DNA from: Octopus sinensis
Taxonomy: Eukaryota
Direction of reading: 5' to 3'
Assembly (NCBI RefSeq): GCF_006345805.1
Contig: NC_042998.1
Span: forward strand, 141,422,001 to 141,486,000
Length of the DNA stretch: 64,000 bases
The notes under the pieces are model-generated. The model did not search any database and had not been told where the DNA came from. It saw only the letters and a program-made list of their open reading frames with translations. Position 1 is the stretch's first letter, and every line of letters starts with the position of its first letter. The translations under genes and the position numbers were made by a program. This document shows positions 3,208 through 58,095 of the stretch, piece after piece.

Positions 3208-3957
3208 TTCAATCAGTAAATTGTAATCTGTCTCTCTTTTCATGTGAATGTGTATTTGCTTCCAGTATCAGGAAAAAAAAAAGGTTGAAAGTCCAGTCAG
3301 TCATGCCAAGTTGCACTTATCGTCTCCTTGTCACTGGAGGGTCCCACTGCATGCTTTCTTGCAAAATTCCCATGGTTTGCATACCATTATGACATATATT
3401 TAGAATGGTATATTTATAGATTTAAGTGTTCAAAAGTAACATAGTAGCCCCTAATGCTTCATGTCATTCTGTTCACCAAAAGCTCATTTTATTTTTTAAT
3501 ATAAAACTTTATCCCATCTGCTTTTAATGTCCAACAGTGCTCTTAAAGAAAATTCTGAGAATAATATTCATCATATTCTATATGTTCCAAATTGGATGTG
3601 CTATACAATATGACGAATATTATTCTCAGAATTTTCTTTGGCAGTGCTGTTGGACATTGGAGGCAGAAACAGCTGTTAGATGGGCTAAGGTTTTGAATTA
3701 AAAAATAATAATCGATGGTAGGCAATTTGTTGTTGTTCAAGAATTTCTCCATTTCCTGCTTAATTTAAATTTGTTCCCTGATAAATTCTTGTTTATTTGT
3801 GATATTGCCTGTACCCTACGAGCATAATATGCTTGCATATGTATGCCCAGAGTTAACATAGGTAATTTATACTGGTAGTAAAACAGATATTCTTATCCCT
3901 CAGCCAGTTATTCCAACCTCTAACCCTACTAACCTATATATAATATAAGAAAAGGAA

Positions 3958-4800
3958 ATAGAGAAATCAACAGATAGACATCAATTAATTAATACAAATC
4001 CAATTTCAAGCAACATCAATTTCTTATAACCTACAATTGTTTCCATGTTCAATTGATTCAAATATCGAATAATTAAATTAATTTAAAGATGTAATTTGAA
4101 TACAGTGAATTGAACATTTTGTCAGGGTTAGAAATTGACAGAAAAAAAGGAATCACATCTCAATGGATCGAGTGGTCATTGCCAGATTCAGCATTAAATT
4201 TAGATGCATGCGTGTATGTATATTAATGTTCTAACAAAAAAAAAAGCTACTTGCATATATGCTATTTTGTTTTATTATTTTTATTGTATTTGTGTGCATG
4301 TTAATATATTTGAAAAACAAAAGAACCCTAAGATTGGATAAACAATACCTTCGATACAGTTAACGGTAAGCAAAACTATTTATTCTTAAATTTTCATTAT
4401 TACCTGTGAGAATATGAATGCTAGGATAGCTTTTTAGCTACTTAAGAATTTTATTAAGTCACTTAGTCAAAACTGCTAGTTTTAATTTATATTATTTAAA
4501 CTATAGTTATTGTTTACCGTTAAGAACATTAATATACACATGAACACACATCTGAGTTTACTATTGAATATAACAATAATCACTCGATCCATTGAGATGG
4601 GATTCCTTTTTTCGGTCAATTTCTAACCCTGATGAAATGCTCAATTCACTGAATTCAAATTACATCTTTAATTCAATTTAATTATTTGATATTTGAATTA
4701 ATTGAATATGGAAACAATTGTAGGTTATAAGAAATTGATGTTGCTTGAAATTGGATTTGTATTAATGAATTGATGTCTATCTGTCATTTTCTCCATTTTC
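3958..4800. repeat. Long inverted repeat (~220-bp arms 3958-4181 and 4576-4800), Penelope-like pLTR remnant
   Basis: Arms are near reverse complements (e.g. catctcaatggatcgagtg / cactcgatccattgagatg); each arm carries a hammerhead motif. Confidence 0.9.
4624..4727 (+). ncRNA. Type I hammerhead ribozyme motif with long stem II
   Basis: taacc-CTGATGA-[atgctcaatt..aattgaatat]-GAAAC-aatt-GTA-ggtta; stem I taacc/ggtta; palindromic stem III ACAATTGT. Mirror copy on minus strand at 4027-4130 has CTGACAA. Confidence 0.75.
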
Positions 4801-4943
4801 TAAATGATAATATACCCATCTGCATCAATGAAAAACTAATATCTTTTTAATATCTCACTGATACACTGGATAAAACCGGGAACTTTGATGCTAACATCCC
4901 TCTAAGAGGTATTTATATCCTTGCAATAATATATATATATATA

Positions 4944-25930: not shown

Positions 25931-25960
25931 ACGCACAAGACATCAAGAGAATGCTTAGAA

Positions 25961-26513
25961 AGAATAAACCAATAGAAAGTGGAGTATTGTTTTTTACATG
26001 TGCCTGTGATTTGTAGGAGGAAATGTTAGAGTTGTGCAGGGCTGGTCAACCATCAGAGAAGGCAGAGGAATCAACCTCTGGTAAATTGTGGAAAAGAGTT
26101 CTGTTCAGTTAGAGGATTAAAAAGACATGTCAAAAGACCATATATATGCACATGTATGTATATAGTAGCTGCTTTCTTGTAAATGAGCAAAGCCATTACT
26201 AGAAAGAATCAAGAATCAGTAAAATAAGTCTTTGAAAACACAGTTTGAAGTCCTTATATGACTCTTGAGCCCTGCCAAAGATTTGCTCCTTTTTTTACAT
26301 AATGTACAATTGTTCTGGCTGGCAGAAGGATCAGGTCTTTTGACATGTCTTTTTAATCCTCTAACTGAACAGACCACTTTTCCACAATTCACCAGAGGTT
26401 GATTTCTCTGCCTTCTCTGATGGTTGACCAGCCCTGCACGACTCTAACATTTCCTCCTACAAATCACAGACACATGTATAAAACAATACTCCACTTTCTA
26501 TTGGTTTATTCTT
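25961..26513. repeat. Inverted repeat (~180-bp arms 25961-26139 and 26334-26513)
   Basis: gttcagttagaggattaaaaagacatgtcaaaagacc / ggtcttttgacatgtctttttaatcctctaactgaac; arms nearly identical. Confidence 0.95.
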
Positions 26514-45612: not shown

Positions 45613-46943
45613 ATCTTCAGTACGTAAAACGAAATAATTTATTTTAAATCGATACTTAAAAACCTTCACTAATTCATATATAACATAAATATTCAGACGT
45701 TTCATGAAATGGATGTACATCACCGTCAATGAGAAAAAAAGAAAGAAAAGAAAAGAAAGAAAATATCAAATGCAATTAAAAAAAAGTAATAATATCGCAA
45801 GTGATGAATTTTGCTCTACTTTCCCCTCCATCTTCCTTTGCAATGAAGTGTGTGTGTGTTAAAACAGCCATCCACTGCAGCTGTCAATGCACACACATAC
45901 ACACAGAGTCTATGAATACAGAATTGATTGCAATTTAGAAGAGATACAACGAATGAAACGGAGCTGACACATGGATGTTACACAGTGAAGAGGACACAAG
46001 ATGAATAGACAATCGAGTGAAATGGTTTCACTAATGCAATTGAGTGGACAATAAGTGTATGTGTGAGGAATTAGGTAACAACGACATGACTTAACTCTTC
46101 ACAACGACAAATAATTAAATAATTATATCATTTTTGCAGCGACCACCAACGACAAGATGTTAATACCACAATTAAAATTATGTTTAAATCAGACGACTGT
46201 CTTTGAAATTGAAGACGTGAGCTATACTTTAAAAGGTAAGGATGGTGTTTCTGGGTGGATAAATGTTATGGATTTCAAACACAAACTACTTTTCCATCGT
46301 ATTGTGGCGAGACAATCGCTTATCCGTCGAGAACAGGTACTAAATCTTTCAAGAGTGTTACCTGCAAACGTGTTTTATGGTAGCCCCTTAATGTCACAAG
46401 TCATCAACTTACTTCTAAAGCTGAGAACCAATTCGCCTATGTTGACAATGCTCTTAGGAAGTGGTCAGGTTTTATAAACATTCACCTTCATTTATCACAT
46501 CAATGTCAAGTTTCTTTTCAATAATCTATACACACATTTTGTGTGTGTGCGTAGAAATGCAATAGTGGTCAATTAAACCGGATATCAATTCAATCAGAAC
46601 AATTCTATGTCACACAATTCTATGTACACCTAGGCTACGTCAGGTGTTCTGCCGCCATGTGTCTATGTATTCTTTACAGGAAAGAAATTAACAGTGACTT
46701 TGAGATTTTAGCTGTTATCTGTCTATCTAATCTCTTCGATATTATTTATTCACAACCATCGGAACGCGAAGCGCTCCTCACAAACAGAAGTTCGTGAGAT
46801 GGCTGTGATCTGTAAACAGTTTTGAGTAGGAACCGGAAAGAGAAAAATGAAAACGTAATGCGCATGTGCATACCGGATACATAAAACGGAAGATAATAAA
46901 AACGCAATGCACATGTCAAACAAGTTATATGATGGTCTGTAAA

Positions 46944-46974
46944 GGCGGCGAGCTGGCAGAAACGTTAGCACGCC
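46944..46974 (+). mobile_element. 5' piece of a GGCGGCGAG-head SINE, split by the 2.2-kb insertion
   Basis: ggcggcgagctggcagaaacgttagcacgcc; the SINE continues at 49193. Confidence 0.9.
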
Positions 46975-49175
46975 TCCGCTGTTTTTCAAGTTGTACGTGA
47001 GGCAGTTTGACGTTATTTTTCACGGTGTTAACATAATTTATTTTGTGTCTGTGTTTTAAACACTTTGTTAATTGTTTTTGTGCTGCTTTGTAGCAATTTG
47101 TTTGTGCTTTCTCTCCTATTTTGGGGAGAGTTAGCTACGGAGAAAAAGAAGCCTGTTTTTTCAGACCTTGGTGGGTCTAAACTATCGTTGTCAGAAGAAC
47201 TGCTTAGAGCAATAGGAAAAATGGATGAAATAATTAAGAAAGATGAAAAAAAGAAAAGCTTCACGAAAGTGACAAAACAGGAGGAAGAGGAGATTGACAT
47301 CAAGAAAATCAGTAATTTTAAAAATCTGACCTGTAGAGAGGGGTACAATGTGGAGTTGTCCCCTCCAAAGGAAATGTTGGAGGGTGTCAGAGAGAGTAGT
47401 TGCATGCAGGACATTCTCAGCGAAGGCAAGTAGGATTGAAAACGTAAAAACGGCTCAAATAGAAAAGGTACTAAGGCCCATGTGGTGGGATATTATCTTT
47501 GTAAGGTGCAGTGGAGGTGAGGTTCGCAAGGAAGCGGGCGGTGGGGACAGTAGAGGACGGGGTAGTGGTGTTGTTGCCCACTTGTATGGGCAGAAGGGCA
47601 ACTGGGATTGGAGTTGAAGGTATTCCACCGAAGTGGACGTGGCCTGGGTGGCGGCCGCGGTCCTCGAGGGAGGTGAGGACGATGTAGCGGTGCTCCAGGC
47701 CGCGGGATGTGGAGGGGAGAGACACTCGAGATGGCGGTGCAGGCATCGGCGAAAGCCTTGGAGGAGATAGCAGAGATAGTCTTGTTTGATGAGGCAGAGA
47801 TGTGGGGGAGGAAAACAATTACATACAAAACATTTTCAACGAAAGCGGGCAGAATTGAGAATGTAAACTCAAGTCAAATAGAAAAAGTGTTGGGCGGTGA
47901 AGGACAGTTCACTCTAATGGTTAAGTAGTTAGACTTAAGCCAAGTATGAAATTATTATTATGACAAAAAACAAAAAGCAAGCAAGACAAAACAGTCATTT
48001 ATCTAGTAAACCCACTTGTCGTAGAATCTATAATAGATTTTCCAGATTGTGGCACGACATAGCCTTTATAAAGAGAGGAATGAGATTTGGTACAGTAGAG
48101 GTGAGGTTCACGAAAGAACAAAATGTAAAGAAACAGGCAGCGAAGGCAATAAAGGATGAAGAAGTGGTGTTGTTGCCCACTTATATGGACAGACGGGCAA
48201 CAAGGATTAAAGTCGAAGGTATTCCATCCGAAATACACGTGGCCTGGGTAGCGGCCGCAGTCCTTAAAGGAAATGAGGAGGATATAGCAGTGCTCCAGGT
48301 CACGGGAACCAGATGTGAAATGTGGAAAGGAAAGACACTTGAGATGACGGTACAAGCATCAAGGGAAATCTTAGAAAATATAGCAGAAATAATCTCGTTT
48401 GATGAAACGGAAAAGAGGTTCAAGGTGGATGGCAGAGTCCCTAGATGTTATGTGGTCTAAAGGGCCACATTAGAGTGAACTGACCTTCACCGCCAGAAAA
48501 AAAAGTAGAAGAACGGACAAAGAAAACGGAGGAACATGCAGAGATGATAGAAAAAGAAGAGAAAAAAGTACCAGAGGAAGAAACATGGAAAGTGGCAGGC
48601 GGGGGAAACCGAAGAAAGCAAGTGATTTGAACTTTAAATCCCAACCCACACCCACCCTTCCCCACAGACACCGAGACTAACCATTCCTCTCCGACACGAA
48701 AACAAAAAAAGAAACACACACACTAGAACTCTCAAACTCCCCCTCCCAGACAAAAAAGAAATGTGTAGTAGTGATGATTGATGATTCGAACGAGAACTAC
48801 CGGAATGGGACGATTTTAAGGCAGTGGAAAATTCATGAGTTTGACAATGTCAAGAGGTGACACCGTTGTGTGTTACCGACGGAGGAACAGATGGAGAGTG
48901 TTGAAACAAAAGTGGATATGGGTCGTAGGAGGTGAAGTTGAACAGAAAGGAACTACCGGAAGTTTTGACTTTCGGGATAGACATACTAGAAGGAACGGGG
49001 TATAAAAGGTGGTAAAGGGTAGAAATGGGGTCGCTCGGAGATGGGGCTGAGTGGTCCCATTCAATTTTCTCGTTTTCATATTTATCATTCATCTTTGTCA
49101 TACATTTGTTTTTTTTTATTCGTTTTGTGTCCCCACATGTGATGTGTTGTCCCGTTGGTGGGCAATAATGTATTA
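46975..49175 (+). mobile_element. ORF1-only (HAL1-like) L1/Tx1-type non-autonomous retroelement with 17-bp TSD
   Basis: TSD agaaacgttagcacgcc (46958-46974) / agaaatgttagcacgcc (49176-49192); broken ORF1 with K/E-rich N-terminus, RRM-like region (GTVEVRF..LLPTYM..RIKVEGIP) and CCHC knuckle C(Y)xCGLKGHIRVN(C) at ~48446-48483; no RT or endonuclease seen. Confidence 0.85.
47131..49015 (+). pseudogene. Disrupted, internally duplicated gag-like ORF1
   Basis: ORF-track pieces 47065-47433, 47348-47617, 47707-47928 and 47960-48460 are homologous or consecutive parts; frameshifts and a TGA at the last knuckle Cys. Confidence 0.75.
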
Positions 49176-49428
49176 AGAAATGTTAGCACGCCGGGCGAAA
49201 TGCTTAGCGGTATTTCGTCTGCCGCTACGTTCTGAGTTCAAATTCCGCCGAGGTTGACTTTGCCTTTCATCCTTTCGGGGTCGATTAAATAAGTACCAGT
49301 TACGCACTGGGGTCGATATAATCGACTTAATCCGTTTGTCTGTCCTTGTTTGTCCTCTCTGTGTTTAGCCCCTTGAGTGTAGTAAAGAAATAGGTATTTC
49401 GTCTGTCTTTACGTTCTGTGTTCAAATT
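49176..49428 (+). mobile_element. Remainder of the interrupted SINE with an alternative 3' tail, followed by a second partial SINE head
   Basis: gggcgaaatgcttagcggtatttcgtctgcc..gtcgatataatcgacttaatccgtttgtc..gtaaagaaata then ggtatttcgtctgtctttacgttctgtgttcaaattc. Confidence 0.9.
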
Positions 49429-49429
49429 C

Positions 49430-50229
49430 GTATATGTATCTCTCTCACGCATGCTGCTCCCTTCTCTCTTGATATGACCGACGTATTGCAATATCAAGAG
49501 CGTCTGTCTAGCTCTGTGTAAATTATTTACATGCCTGTTTGACCGTTTCACGTGACTTTATTCATTGAAACTTCTTGCAAATTCCGTCGTTGTAATGTTT
49601 TGCTTTCCTTTTGTTTCAAACTTCCTCGTAGTAAATGTTTTTGCTTTCATTTTGTGATGGACAGCTATCACGCAAAAAATGCTAGTTTCCAAATCTTTGT
49701 TTTCTGATTGAGTAAAAATGATCAAACTTTAAACCTCTGTAATATTTTTCTAAACTTTTCTGGAATAAATGAATCACAAAATCGGATTTAGCGTGAAAAA
49801 TTACATTAATATAGAAAATTTGAAAATGTTCATTTAATTTTAAAATTTTCAAAATCTGTGACAATAACGCTTTTCTCATTGTAAACTTTCCTTTTCTCTC
49901 TATTTACCACACTCTCTCTCAATCTTCCTCTGTATATGTATGTCGCTCATGCTGAGTGTGTGTGAGGAATTGCATTAGGGCGATAGTAGAAACAGCTTCG
50001 CAAAGCAGCAGCTGCGTATTAAGAAAAATCTTTACATTTATGCGCACCAAATAGAAAAACAAAAACTTTGTTTATCGAGACACAGATTAGCCCCAGATAA
50101 TGTAAAGATCCCTCCCGATGAAGAAGCCTATCCATCGCAGAAGACATGTTTAACATGGAATAAGCGAAATATTGAAATAAAGGCATTCTATTTTGAAAAT
50201 TATCTGGCAACGACGGGCTACTCGGCTAG
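49430..50229 (+). mobile_element. Non-autonomous Helitron-like element (3' end supported, 5' end approximate)
   Basis: Ends gcaacgacgggctactcggCTAG|T, a subterminal hairpin plus CTAG before T. Confidence 0.55.
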
Positions 50230-51623
50230 TATTGTATAACATACATTAAACTGCGTATGGAGCAACACCATTGCGCTATTACATATAGCAGGTTATTGAA
50301 ATACAAATACAGAAATTAATATACGTACTTGAAACAGCCTTAGATTAAAATACCAGTGTGCTTAACATTTAACGTACATGCAAATGTACAACGGCACTAG
50401 CTATGATATTTCGTTTCAAAGAAGCCCTCAGAGTGATTTGGAACACCTACACAAATGTGCCATTCCACTCAACTTAAAAGAAAATTGGTGGATGCACACA
50501 CATGTATACTATATCTACAAAATGAAACTTGAAATTTTAAAAACAAAACAAAGATGTGAGTCAATTTGTATGTGTTCGCACCCTTCTTTTTTTCTTTTTC
50601 TTCACATTAAATTCCGATATAATCGCAATCTATACTATCTGAAAGGTAATTGTAGAAAATTTCATTTAGAAATACCCTTTGTTTCTTCGTTGCTTTCAGA
50701 AAGAAAGAAAGAAAAAAAAAGTCGACTCGTGTGAATTATTCTAAATTCCTCTCTCTATGCCCCCGAAAAAAATTTCCACAAAAATTCCGATATAATCGGA
50801 ATCTACACCTTTCGTAAGATATTTGTAGAAAATTTCATTAGCAAAATTTCCATTTATCTTAAGTTATGAGGACGTGTGTGTGTGTGTGTGGGGGGGGGGC
50901 AGTATGCCGAGACTTGTGCGTTAAAAGTCAAAACCGCTGGATGTTCCTCTAAGACAGTATTATAGCTAGAGCTGTTCAACGTTAATTTTATGTTTTTTTT
51001 TTGTTTCAGTCATTGGACTTCGACCATGCTGGGGCATCGCCTTTAAGAGTTTTAGTCGAACAAATCGACTCCAGTACTTAGGCTTTTTGAAGTCTGATAT
51101 CTTATTCTGCAAATCAACGCCGGTTGTCAAGCGGTAGTGTGATGGATAACAAGCACATATAAAATCAGATTTGAATACGAGTAGGATTTCCCATATAATA
51201 ACTTATAGCAATATAGTACTCAATCTTTACCTTCCCAAAACACACGGGTTAAATTCTCTAAATAGAAATCAAATAACATCAACAACAATCAAACCCTAGT
51301 TAGACATCTCATGACCAAACATTTTCCTTTCCTTATATGCTTTCAGATCACTAAAACATAACAATAACCAAATTTCTTTACTAGCAATCTCATACTCTGA
51401 ATCTGGTAAACCTAAACTAGACACACCTGACAACAAAGTTTTATACACTTGACTGAACTCTGAAAAATATCATAGCTTCAACTCTAAACAATAAAACCTT
51501 GTATAATAGCTTTCCATAAGCACTCACCCTACACACATACATGTTCTCTACCTACCCCTGTCATCCTTCCTATACAGCTCTTTGCAGAGACTATATAAAG
51601 CCAAGATAAACCGAAATTTATCA

Positions 51624-57894: not shown

Positions 57895-58095
57895 TTCTTT
57901 TCTACTCTAGGCACAAAGTCCGAAATTCTGGAGGAAGTGGGGCCAGTCGATTGGATCGACCCCAGTACACAATTGGTACTTAATTTATCGACCCCGAAAG
58001 GATGAAAGGCACAGTCGACCTCGGCGGAATTTGAACTCAGAACATAAAGACAGGCGAAATACCGCTAAGCATTTCGCCCGGCGTGCTAACGTTAC
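57895..58095 (-). mobile_element. Young GGCGGCGAG-head SINE, uninterrupted at the site used by the 46975 insertion
   Basis: tatcgaccccgaaaggatgaaaggcacagtcgacctcggcggaatttgaactcag..ccgctaagcatttcgcccggcgtgctaacgtt. Confidence 0.9.

Follow-up and report, generated by a model that had tools for sequence, protein, structure and literature searches.

Retroelements of the Tx1 clade can reside inside other transposons. Described examples are Xenopus Tx1 in Tx1D as well as the crocodilian Tx1-Mar and SINEU-3 in Mariner-N4_AMi, and for Tx1-type systems target co-transcription is mentioned as strengthening the specificity (PMC4494074). In R1Bm, SART1Bm and R2 target letters present on the RNA improve the precision of insertion (PMC7265360, PMC4494074), and a hairpin of the endonuclease shapes target specificity (PMC1950540). 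A type I ORF1 with RRM and CCHC motifs has been described for Tx1-like elements (PMC5203782). Both Tx1 elements in DNA transposons together with their riders (PMC4494074) and ORF1-only elements of the HAL1 type (PMC5753468) are known already. ADAR hyperediting of repeat RNA leaves clustered A-to-G changes on one strand, with G depleted upstream and enriched downstream of the edited sites (PMC4365171, PMC2873906). A repeat annotation of O. vulgaris reports 13 recently active L1-Tx1 families, and none of the words “editing”, “ADAR” or “nested” occurs in its accessible text (PMC13282606). The literature searched, which lies outside Repbase, most subscription papers and supplements, yielded no Tx1 system that targets a SINE or consists of ORF1 alone. 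The octopus group is known for heavy RNA editing.

Here, we present a locus of Octopus sinensis in which the half-LINE design and the site-specific Tx1 design are joined in one system. The window, i.e. the complete stretch of 64,000 nucleotides that was analyzed, contains at a fixed SINE position a decayed non-LTR element encoding ORF1 only. It was probably inserted by the enzymes, endonuclease and reverse transcriptase, of a full-length partner of L1/Tx1 type with which it has the 3′ tail in common.

Layout of the locus

An insert of 2201 bp (46975-49175) splits the SINE head after 31 nt and is flanked by a 17-bp duplication with a single mismatch at a CpG. These values of the original prediction were all re-measured, and the 3′ end of the insert carries no poly(A), in line with the long poly(A) reported as missing. 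The features are as follows.

46944-46974, plus strand: tRNA-like SINE head, 5′ 31 nt (50,081 exact genome copies of the head motif)
46958-46974, plus strand: left copy of the 17-bp duplication
46975-47806, plus strand: first part of the element, with a T-rich 5′ UTR followed by ORF1 from its start through most of the predicted RRM2
47382-47793, plus strand: A-to-G tract on the sense strand with ADAR-like neighbour pattern (putatively hyperedited), coinciding with the duplicated stretch
47811-47888, plus strand: second, unedited ORF1 copy, restarting at element position ~410
47889-48047, strand undefined: private interruption of 159 bp
48048-49030, plus strand: remaining ORF1, decayed, with predicted RRM1-RRM2, CCHC knuckle, charged and proline-rich linker and C-terminal domain
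49031-49175, plus strand: 3′ UTR and conserved tail, common to full-length elements and SINE
49176-49192, plus strand: right copy of the 17-bp duplication, one C>T at the CpG
49193-49393, plus strand: rest of the SINE, i.e. body and a tail resembling the element tail
57895-58095, minus strand: 5′-truncated SINE copy with unbroken junction (89% identity over 149 nt)

In relatives the 3′ part of the left duplication copy is often supplied by the element's own 5′ leader. A T5 run lies at 46982, 8 nt past the insert start. The ORF1 start codon (47137) is decayed and so is the poly(A) signal (49164-49169), which in the tail of relatives is an AATAAA of Pol II type; a frameshift together with a stop disrupts the CCHC knuckle (~48446-48484). 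Part of the private interruption (47893-47919) repeats 48468-48494 in inverted orientation, and the remainder of the interruption has no clear source among the loci compared. The stretch 46954-46964 within the SINE head we take to be A-box-like, and a presumably B-box-like stretch is found within 49193-49393, both judged by their match to the box consensus. A second SINE fragment follows after 49393 and extends to ~49429. No ORF2 was detected by tblastn in 46001-50500. The insert is ~500 bp longer than its relatives, the excess being a private internal duplication. Elsewhere in the window two long inverted repeats (3953-4801 and 25960-26513) with arms of 195 and 180 nt, 92-96% complementary, are probably MITE-like elements.

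The target SINE

The motif of the SINE head has its 50,081 exact matches in a 2.7-Gb genome. This demonstrates the intact head better than the copy at 57895-58095, which had been taken for the intact target: its junction is indeed unbroken, but it is truncated at the 5′ end and retains only 14 of the 17 duplicated letters. Neither ARAGORN nor Rfam gave a tRNA match in the head. The SINE carries the tail of the full-length elements, i.e. a LINE tail, plus a target duplication of its own, which at two loci (L198, L205) encloses head, insert and body. An exact pattern of the tail has 12 matches, ten being SINE tails at unrelated sites and two element tails at the SINE site; no ORF2-bearing partner of the window subfamily was found among these 12.

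The SINE also inserts into other copies of itself, either at the head site or ~18 nt further on at a second one. Such cases are seen in the window at 49393-49429 and at L163, L167, L180, L182 and L183 as well as L202 and L204. Many SINE tails are followed by GTA.

An ORF1-only family at a fixed site

Searches with the 3′ and 5′ ends of the element returned at least 44 and at least 40 matches, respectively. The relatives are 1.6-1.75 kb long and code for ORF1 alone: tblastn detected an ORF2 within the element at none of 26 loci including the window, the only match being an unrelated ORF2 outside the element and on the opposite strand at one locus. Complete 5′ ends of the window type sit at the SINE site at 19 of 22 loci, while the other three start at one constant position in a second repeat. 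Finding 19 of 22 at the same SINE position excludes chance. The 48 tail matches of the wider group are distributed over the SINE site (17), the second repeat (7) and other places (24); among these last are two SINE sites that have decayed and several flanks seen more than once. The flanks of other copies are not random and the missing ORF2 is not peculiar to one copy. This bears out the proposal of a non-autonomous ORF1-only family that is specific for one site of an abundant SINE.

The ORF1 tree was reconstructed from 50 rows with a midpoint root only, excluding one row of low cover (H_C7_46) as well as the C28 copy, which is broken. The two halves of the window copy are placed in one subfamily of seven loci (support 99/97), with the SINE site on the left in all seven and on the right in six, one member having lost its right flank. 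Three 5′-truncated relatives have the SINE on the right and no SINE head on the left. This window subfamily is old and the window copy itself decayed. Under the midpoint root the 39 ORF1-only rows form one clade, separate from all eight full-length rows (100/99), in which copies at the SINE site and at other sites are intermixed. Sister ORF1-only subfamilies are located in other repeats. Features of a non-autonomous ORF1-only element of HAL1-like build are present, namely an ORF1 without ORF2 in many copies, a 3′ end shared with a LINE, a target duplication and purifying selection.

Among the sister copies, ORF1-only subfamilies (L041, L027, L100, L103, L020, L024, L026) occupy one site near the end of a ~400-bp repeat that has subterminal inverted repeats and 178 exact matches and is the target also in L300 and L302. 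This repeat resembles the Helentron-associated elements. Two further sister copies (L012, L013) have a common right flank leading into a transposase that is piggyBac-like as read from its translation; the arrangement echoes Xenopus Tx1 in Tx1D. In the ORF1 tree additional ORF1-only families group on the side of the full-length elements (L145 and L149-L151 beside full-length elements, and L094:3127-4052), which makes it likely that ORF2 was lost more than once.

Young families and the full-length partner

One sister copy is inserted within an ORF2 of L1/Tx1 type, and a search starting there gave 298 matches, many of them with open frames of ~1130 codons. The respective full-length elements have endonuclease, reverse transcriptase and zf-RVT domains, an ORF1 homologous to that of the window and the same 3′ tail. 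Pfam assigns Exo_endo_phos, RVT_1 and zf-RVT to the ORF2 of a near-identical sibling of the partner found at the SINE site. A search with tail plus target pattern revealed two young ORF1-only families, named B and C. For counting the young group a 5′ pattern devoid of target letters was used. Its 77 matches are found in 23 loci, 17 of which start in the SINE head, three end in the SINE body and three are off-target, so that the young group, comprising both ORF1-only families and full-length elements, is at the SINE site in 20 of 23 loci.

The young ORF1-only units are 80 in number and 1.65-1.74 kb long; intact ORF1 frames of 485 and 455 codons occur, and many of the loci are head-to-tail arrays. 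Divergence among family B elements has a median of 3%, compared with 20% among the SINEs that host them (12 loci), and these loci are therefore separate insertions. DNA of family B is present in sequencing runs under four organism codes, and none of the runs listed is on record as RNA. In the SINE head there are also four full-length elements of 5.3 kb, all of them frameshifted in this assembly. Families B and C and this full-length partner have a 165-nt 5′ end in common (92% between B and C). The search for an autonomous partner was thus successful: an element with homologous ORF1, the same 3′ tail and the same site exists. The match of the full-length copies residing at the SINE site is to the young families B and C; for the older window subfamily no partner of the same age was found. 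In each of the four arrays that contain a full-length element (G000:C2:57141567, C2:169356635, C6:45216819 and C9:76219867) it is the 5′-most unit.

The partner has two ORFs, an ORF2 with APE endonuclease, reverse transcriptase and C-terminal zinc motif, a predicted type I ORF1 with RRM and CCHC and a preference for multicopy targets, as is typical of Tx1. Among 86 matches the sole informative name was “Transposon TX1 149 kDa protein” (26% identity). Judged by these sequence features, membership of the partner in the Tx1 clade is likely.

Predicted domain structure of ORF1

An intact protein of family B was modelled from an alignment of 24 rows. The model has a mean pLDDT of 73 (~90 over residues 70-280) and matches tandem-RRM proteins (E ~4e-5; Z 9.3, rmsd 2.5 over 80 residues). 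The predicted order is two RRMs, one CCHC knuckle, a low-complexity linker and a family-specific C-terminal domain; matches to zf-CCHC are just below the curated Pfam cut-off and Pfam gives no match to Transposase_22. ORF1 is thus predicted to be of type I as in Tx1-like elements. The original prediction of nothing beyond a gag-like ORF1 with a CCHC knuckle was right about the missing ORF2 and too narrow about the protein, since an intact relative is predicted to contain two RRMs in addition to the knuckle. A homolog search with a relative returned as named matches only four octopus proteins covering ~20% of the query, and look-ups of the homolog clusters yielded no names. Over 191 core codons families B and C differ by dN 0.29 and dS 2.4, the latter being near saturation; the codon comparison indicates that ORF1 is kept under purifying selection.

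Internal duplication and A-to-G changes

The window copy repeats element positions ~410-870. In the first copy, from 47385 on, 48 of 148 reference A are changed to G, compared with 6/120 upstream and 14/333 in the second copy (p 5e-14), and A-to-G changes exceed G-to-A changes by 40 to 4 (p 2e-8). A 5′ G precedes 1/27 edited and 21/48 unedited sites (p 1.6e-4). Comparable tracts are found in five of the 80 young units on the sense strand and in none on the other strand. In these hyperedited young units a 5′ G stands before 16/305 edited and 399/987 unedited A (p 3e-37), and a 3′ G is mildly enriched at edited sites (p 0.03). The edited copies have many sites in common and none is a subset of another. 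Clustered changes of this kind on one strand are the ADAR pattern (PMC4365171, PMC2873906), in the window tract as well as in the young units. It is likely that in the window copy an RNA hyperedited in the ADAR manner was copied into germline DNA. A-to-G hypermutated DNA is also known from avian retroviruses. No long internal inverted repeat that could serve as ADAR duplex was found in the window copy or in the young units.

Contigs of two samples from two studies span the edited tract, with one (X2, possibly the source sample) and three to four (X8) differing letters, and an assembly artefact is thereby ruled out. Contigs of X4 (76% read) and X13 leave most of the tract uncovered. Contigs of four runs guessed to be RNA cover a family B element and have no excess of editing-type changes. 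Apart from the long tracts, two short clusters of six and nine A-to-G changes (G000:C2:193361068 and C5:14122169) are confined to positions 36-80 of the 5′ UTR, which suggests a small local duplex.

The two duplicated halves differ by 8.4% at non-A/G sites, comparable to separate copies, and the first half is nearer to the family majority than the second. Both observations fit two stacked insertions followed by a deletion, an origin that we regard as somewhat probable. The edited tract starts not more than 10 nt from the start of the duplication, and this fits a switch of template from one RNA to another, the stretch that was paired having been edited; such an origin falls slightly short of being probable.

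Choice of the insertion site

Target duplications in this group comprise 16-17 bp, and in many cases the left one does not reproduce the target faithfully. Within the old group CC replaces the target TT at 7 of 19 left junctions, and the four right junctions read have TT; the CC form has five exact matches in the genome compared with 50,081 for the TT form. In the young group a single variant leader is seen at 63 of 89 junctions. At one off-target insertion a clean duplication of 16 bp precedes this target-like variant leader, from which it follows that the leader travels with the element. Variants at left junctions are often T-to-C relative to the target across unrelated target classes (L270, L041, L086 and the SINE-site junctions). 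For the 5′ end of the element Rfam matched neither a ribozyme nor any structured RNA, and a role of a hairpin in the CC leader variant is unsupported because folding z-scores of the 5′ end are weak in three of four sequences.

We suggest that a short preference of the enzyme together with pairing of RNA-borne target letters may set the site, a proposal which in our judgement hangs in the balance. A copy residing in a SINE or in an array would be transcribed, probably by Pol II, and the RNA would retain a few target letters at both ends. It would be packaged by the element's own ORF1 protein, and the ORF2 protein of the partner would bind the tail of the ORF1-only RNA. The endonuclease with its short local preference would nick after AG, and the read-through target letters at the 3′ end of the RNA would pair with the nicked strand and fix the start of copying, which may account for exact junctions without poly(A). 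The 5′ leader would then pair with the overhang of 16-17 nt and thus restore the site, so that further copies could stack there. The cost for the host is likely small as the insertion parts the A-box-like stretch of the SINE from the B-box-like one.

Alternatively, the site might be set by the partner endonuclease alone, one or a few residues being sufficient to retune the enzyme. Leaders would then only repair the 5′ junction, and either the 5′ UTR or the ORF1 protein of each ORF1-only subfamily would bind it to a single partner. The 17 full-length copies compared have endonucleases with 97-98% protein identity and are found at the SINE site (4), a second (5), a third (6) and a fourth target (1), one being unread; near-identical endonucleases thus occur at no fewer than three recurring targets besides the SINE site. 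Asparagine 117 beside the active site, which aligns next to Y115-N118 of L1, is present in all four SINE-site copies and in none of 13 close siblings, and another family with N117 (six copies) also cuts before AAA. This distribution implies that the enzyme carries some of the site choice. The common 165-nt 5′ end of B, C and the partner points in the same direction, and specificity set by the endonuclease is the stated rule of the clade (PMC4494074). The known specificity hairpin, however, does not sort with the target, since A197 occurs in all SINE-site copies and in two of five copies at another target. Furthermore, only two of the 44 variable positions distinguish L265 from the enzyme of the SINE site and yet it has a different target, two other target classes are not fully separated by any listed residue, and point mutants of L1 retained their specificity (PMC1950540). 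Setting of the site by the enzyme alone appears rather unlikely.

In a wider picture of this octopus group, landing sites would be inherited through RNA flanks and one loose endonuclease would serve many repeat-locked lineages. ORF1-only riders, partner and SINE would be nested in each other, with the target also served by that enzyme, and ADAR-edited RNAs would regularly be written into the germline. This we propose only tentatively, as a possibility.

Tethering by promoter factors is known for the tRNA-gene-targeting elements of Dictyostelium and yeast. A host factor on the SINE promoter such as TFIIIC could likewise tether the complex through ORF1, and both the cut within the A-box-like stretch and the family-specific C-terminal domain of ORF1 would suit such a model. 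It is nevertheless very unlikely: SINE-site and other-site copies are intermixed in the ORF1 clades, other targets are used by full-length siblings whose ORF1 is almost the same, and an off-target insertion hit a stretch of similar sequence in an older SINE, on its opposite strand.

Still less probable is the idea, put forward in the original prediction, that the element borrows the Pol III A-box of the SINE as its promoter. Most single copies and arrays do retain the whole A-box-like stretch at their 5′ end. Yet the insert has T5 at +8 and 16 runs of four or more T (family B a T-run at +20), and the B-box-like stretch is 1.7-17 kb downstream (2.2 kb in the window). An A-box is missing from the inner units of arrays and from sister subfamilies inserted in other repeats. 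Full-length elements with targets other than the SINE are built in the same way, as are sister elements with such targets, and the tail of relatives has the AATAAA signal of Pol II type. The same argument rules out Pol III for SINEU (PMC4494074).

The spread of one insertion as a SINE-element-SINE composite, for which the mobilisable tail of the SINE and the three short relatives with a right-hand SINE only might speak, is most improbable and for the young families refuted by the divergence of host SINEs (20%) and elements (3%) and by three unrelated ORF1-only bodies plus one full-length body at the same site, and the same low probability applies to the window copy as single deletion of a full-length element, given that none of the 26 loci has an ORF2.

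Comparison with known systems

The window locus contributes an older subfamily that uses the SINE site, a switching of targets between sisters and the comparison of endonucleases. Near-identical enzymes at different sites represent a natural test of how LINEs choose their target, and a cell assay is feasible with the intact young ORF1-only and the near-intact full-length copies. If RNA flanks redirect insertion, this has a bearing on programmable gene insertion. The A-to-G scars constitute a dated record of RNA editing turned into heritable DNA change in ~6% of the young copies.

As in Tx1 and Tx1-Mar, an APE-type non-LTR element occupies a fixed site in a multicopy repeat, has riders at the same target and stacks in tandem. 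In contrast to those systems, the octopus target is the head of a SINE, the riders encode an ORF1 of their own, the SINE with its LINE tail makes the target a client of the same machinery and near-identical enzymes act at different targets (PMC4494074).

With mammalian HAL1 the octopus elements have in common that they are ORF1-only, non-autonomous, derived from the L1 group and, in octopus probably, arose more than once (PMC5753468). They differ in having a predicted ORF1 of type I with RRMs and CCHC, whereas the mammalian one is of type II (PMC5203782), and in being site-specific, in lacking poly(A) and in forming arrays. HAL1 proper can be rejected because Transposase_22 is missing and tandem RRMs plus a knuckle are predicted instead of a coiled coil with a single RRM.

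ADAR-edited repeat RNA as described in the literature differs in that the octopus changes are found in chromosomal DNA, namely in five of 80 young units and the window copy (PMC4365171, PMC2873906). Finally, R1Bm, SART1Bm and R2 resemble the octopus system in the pairing of RNA ends with the nicked target (in octopus proposed), in exact junctions without poly(A) and in rebuilt sites. In these systems pairing sharpens a site that is set by the endonuclease, whereas in octopus it may also decide which repeat is entered (PMC7265360, PMC4494074).
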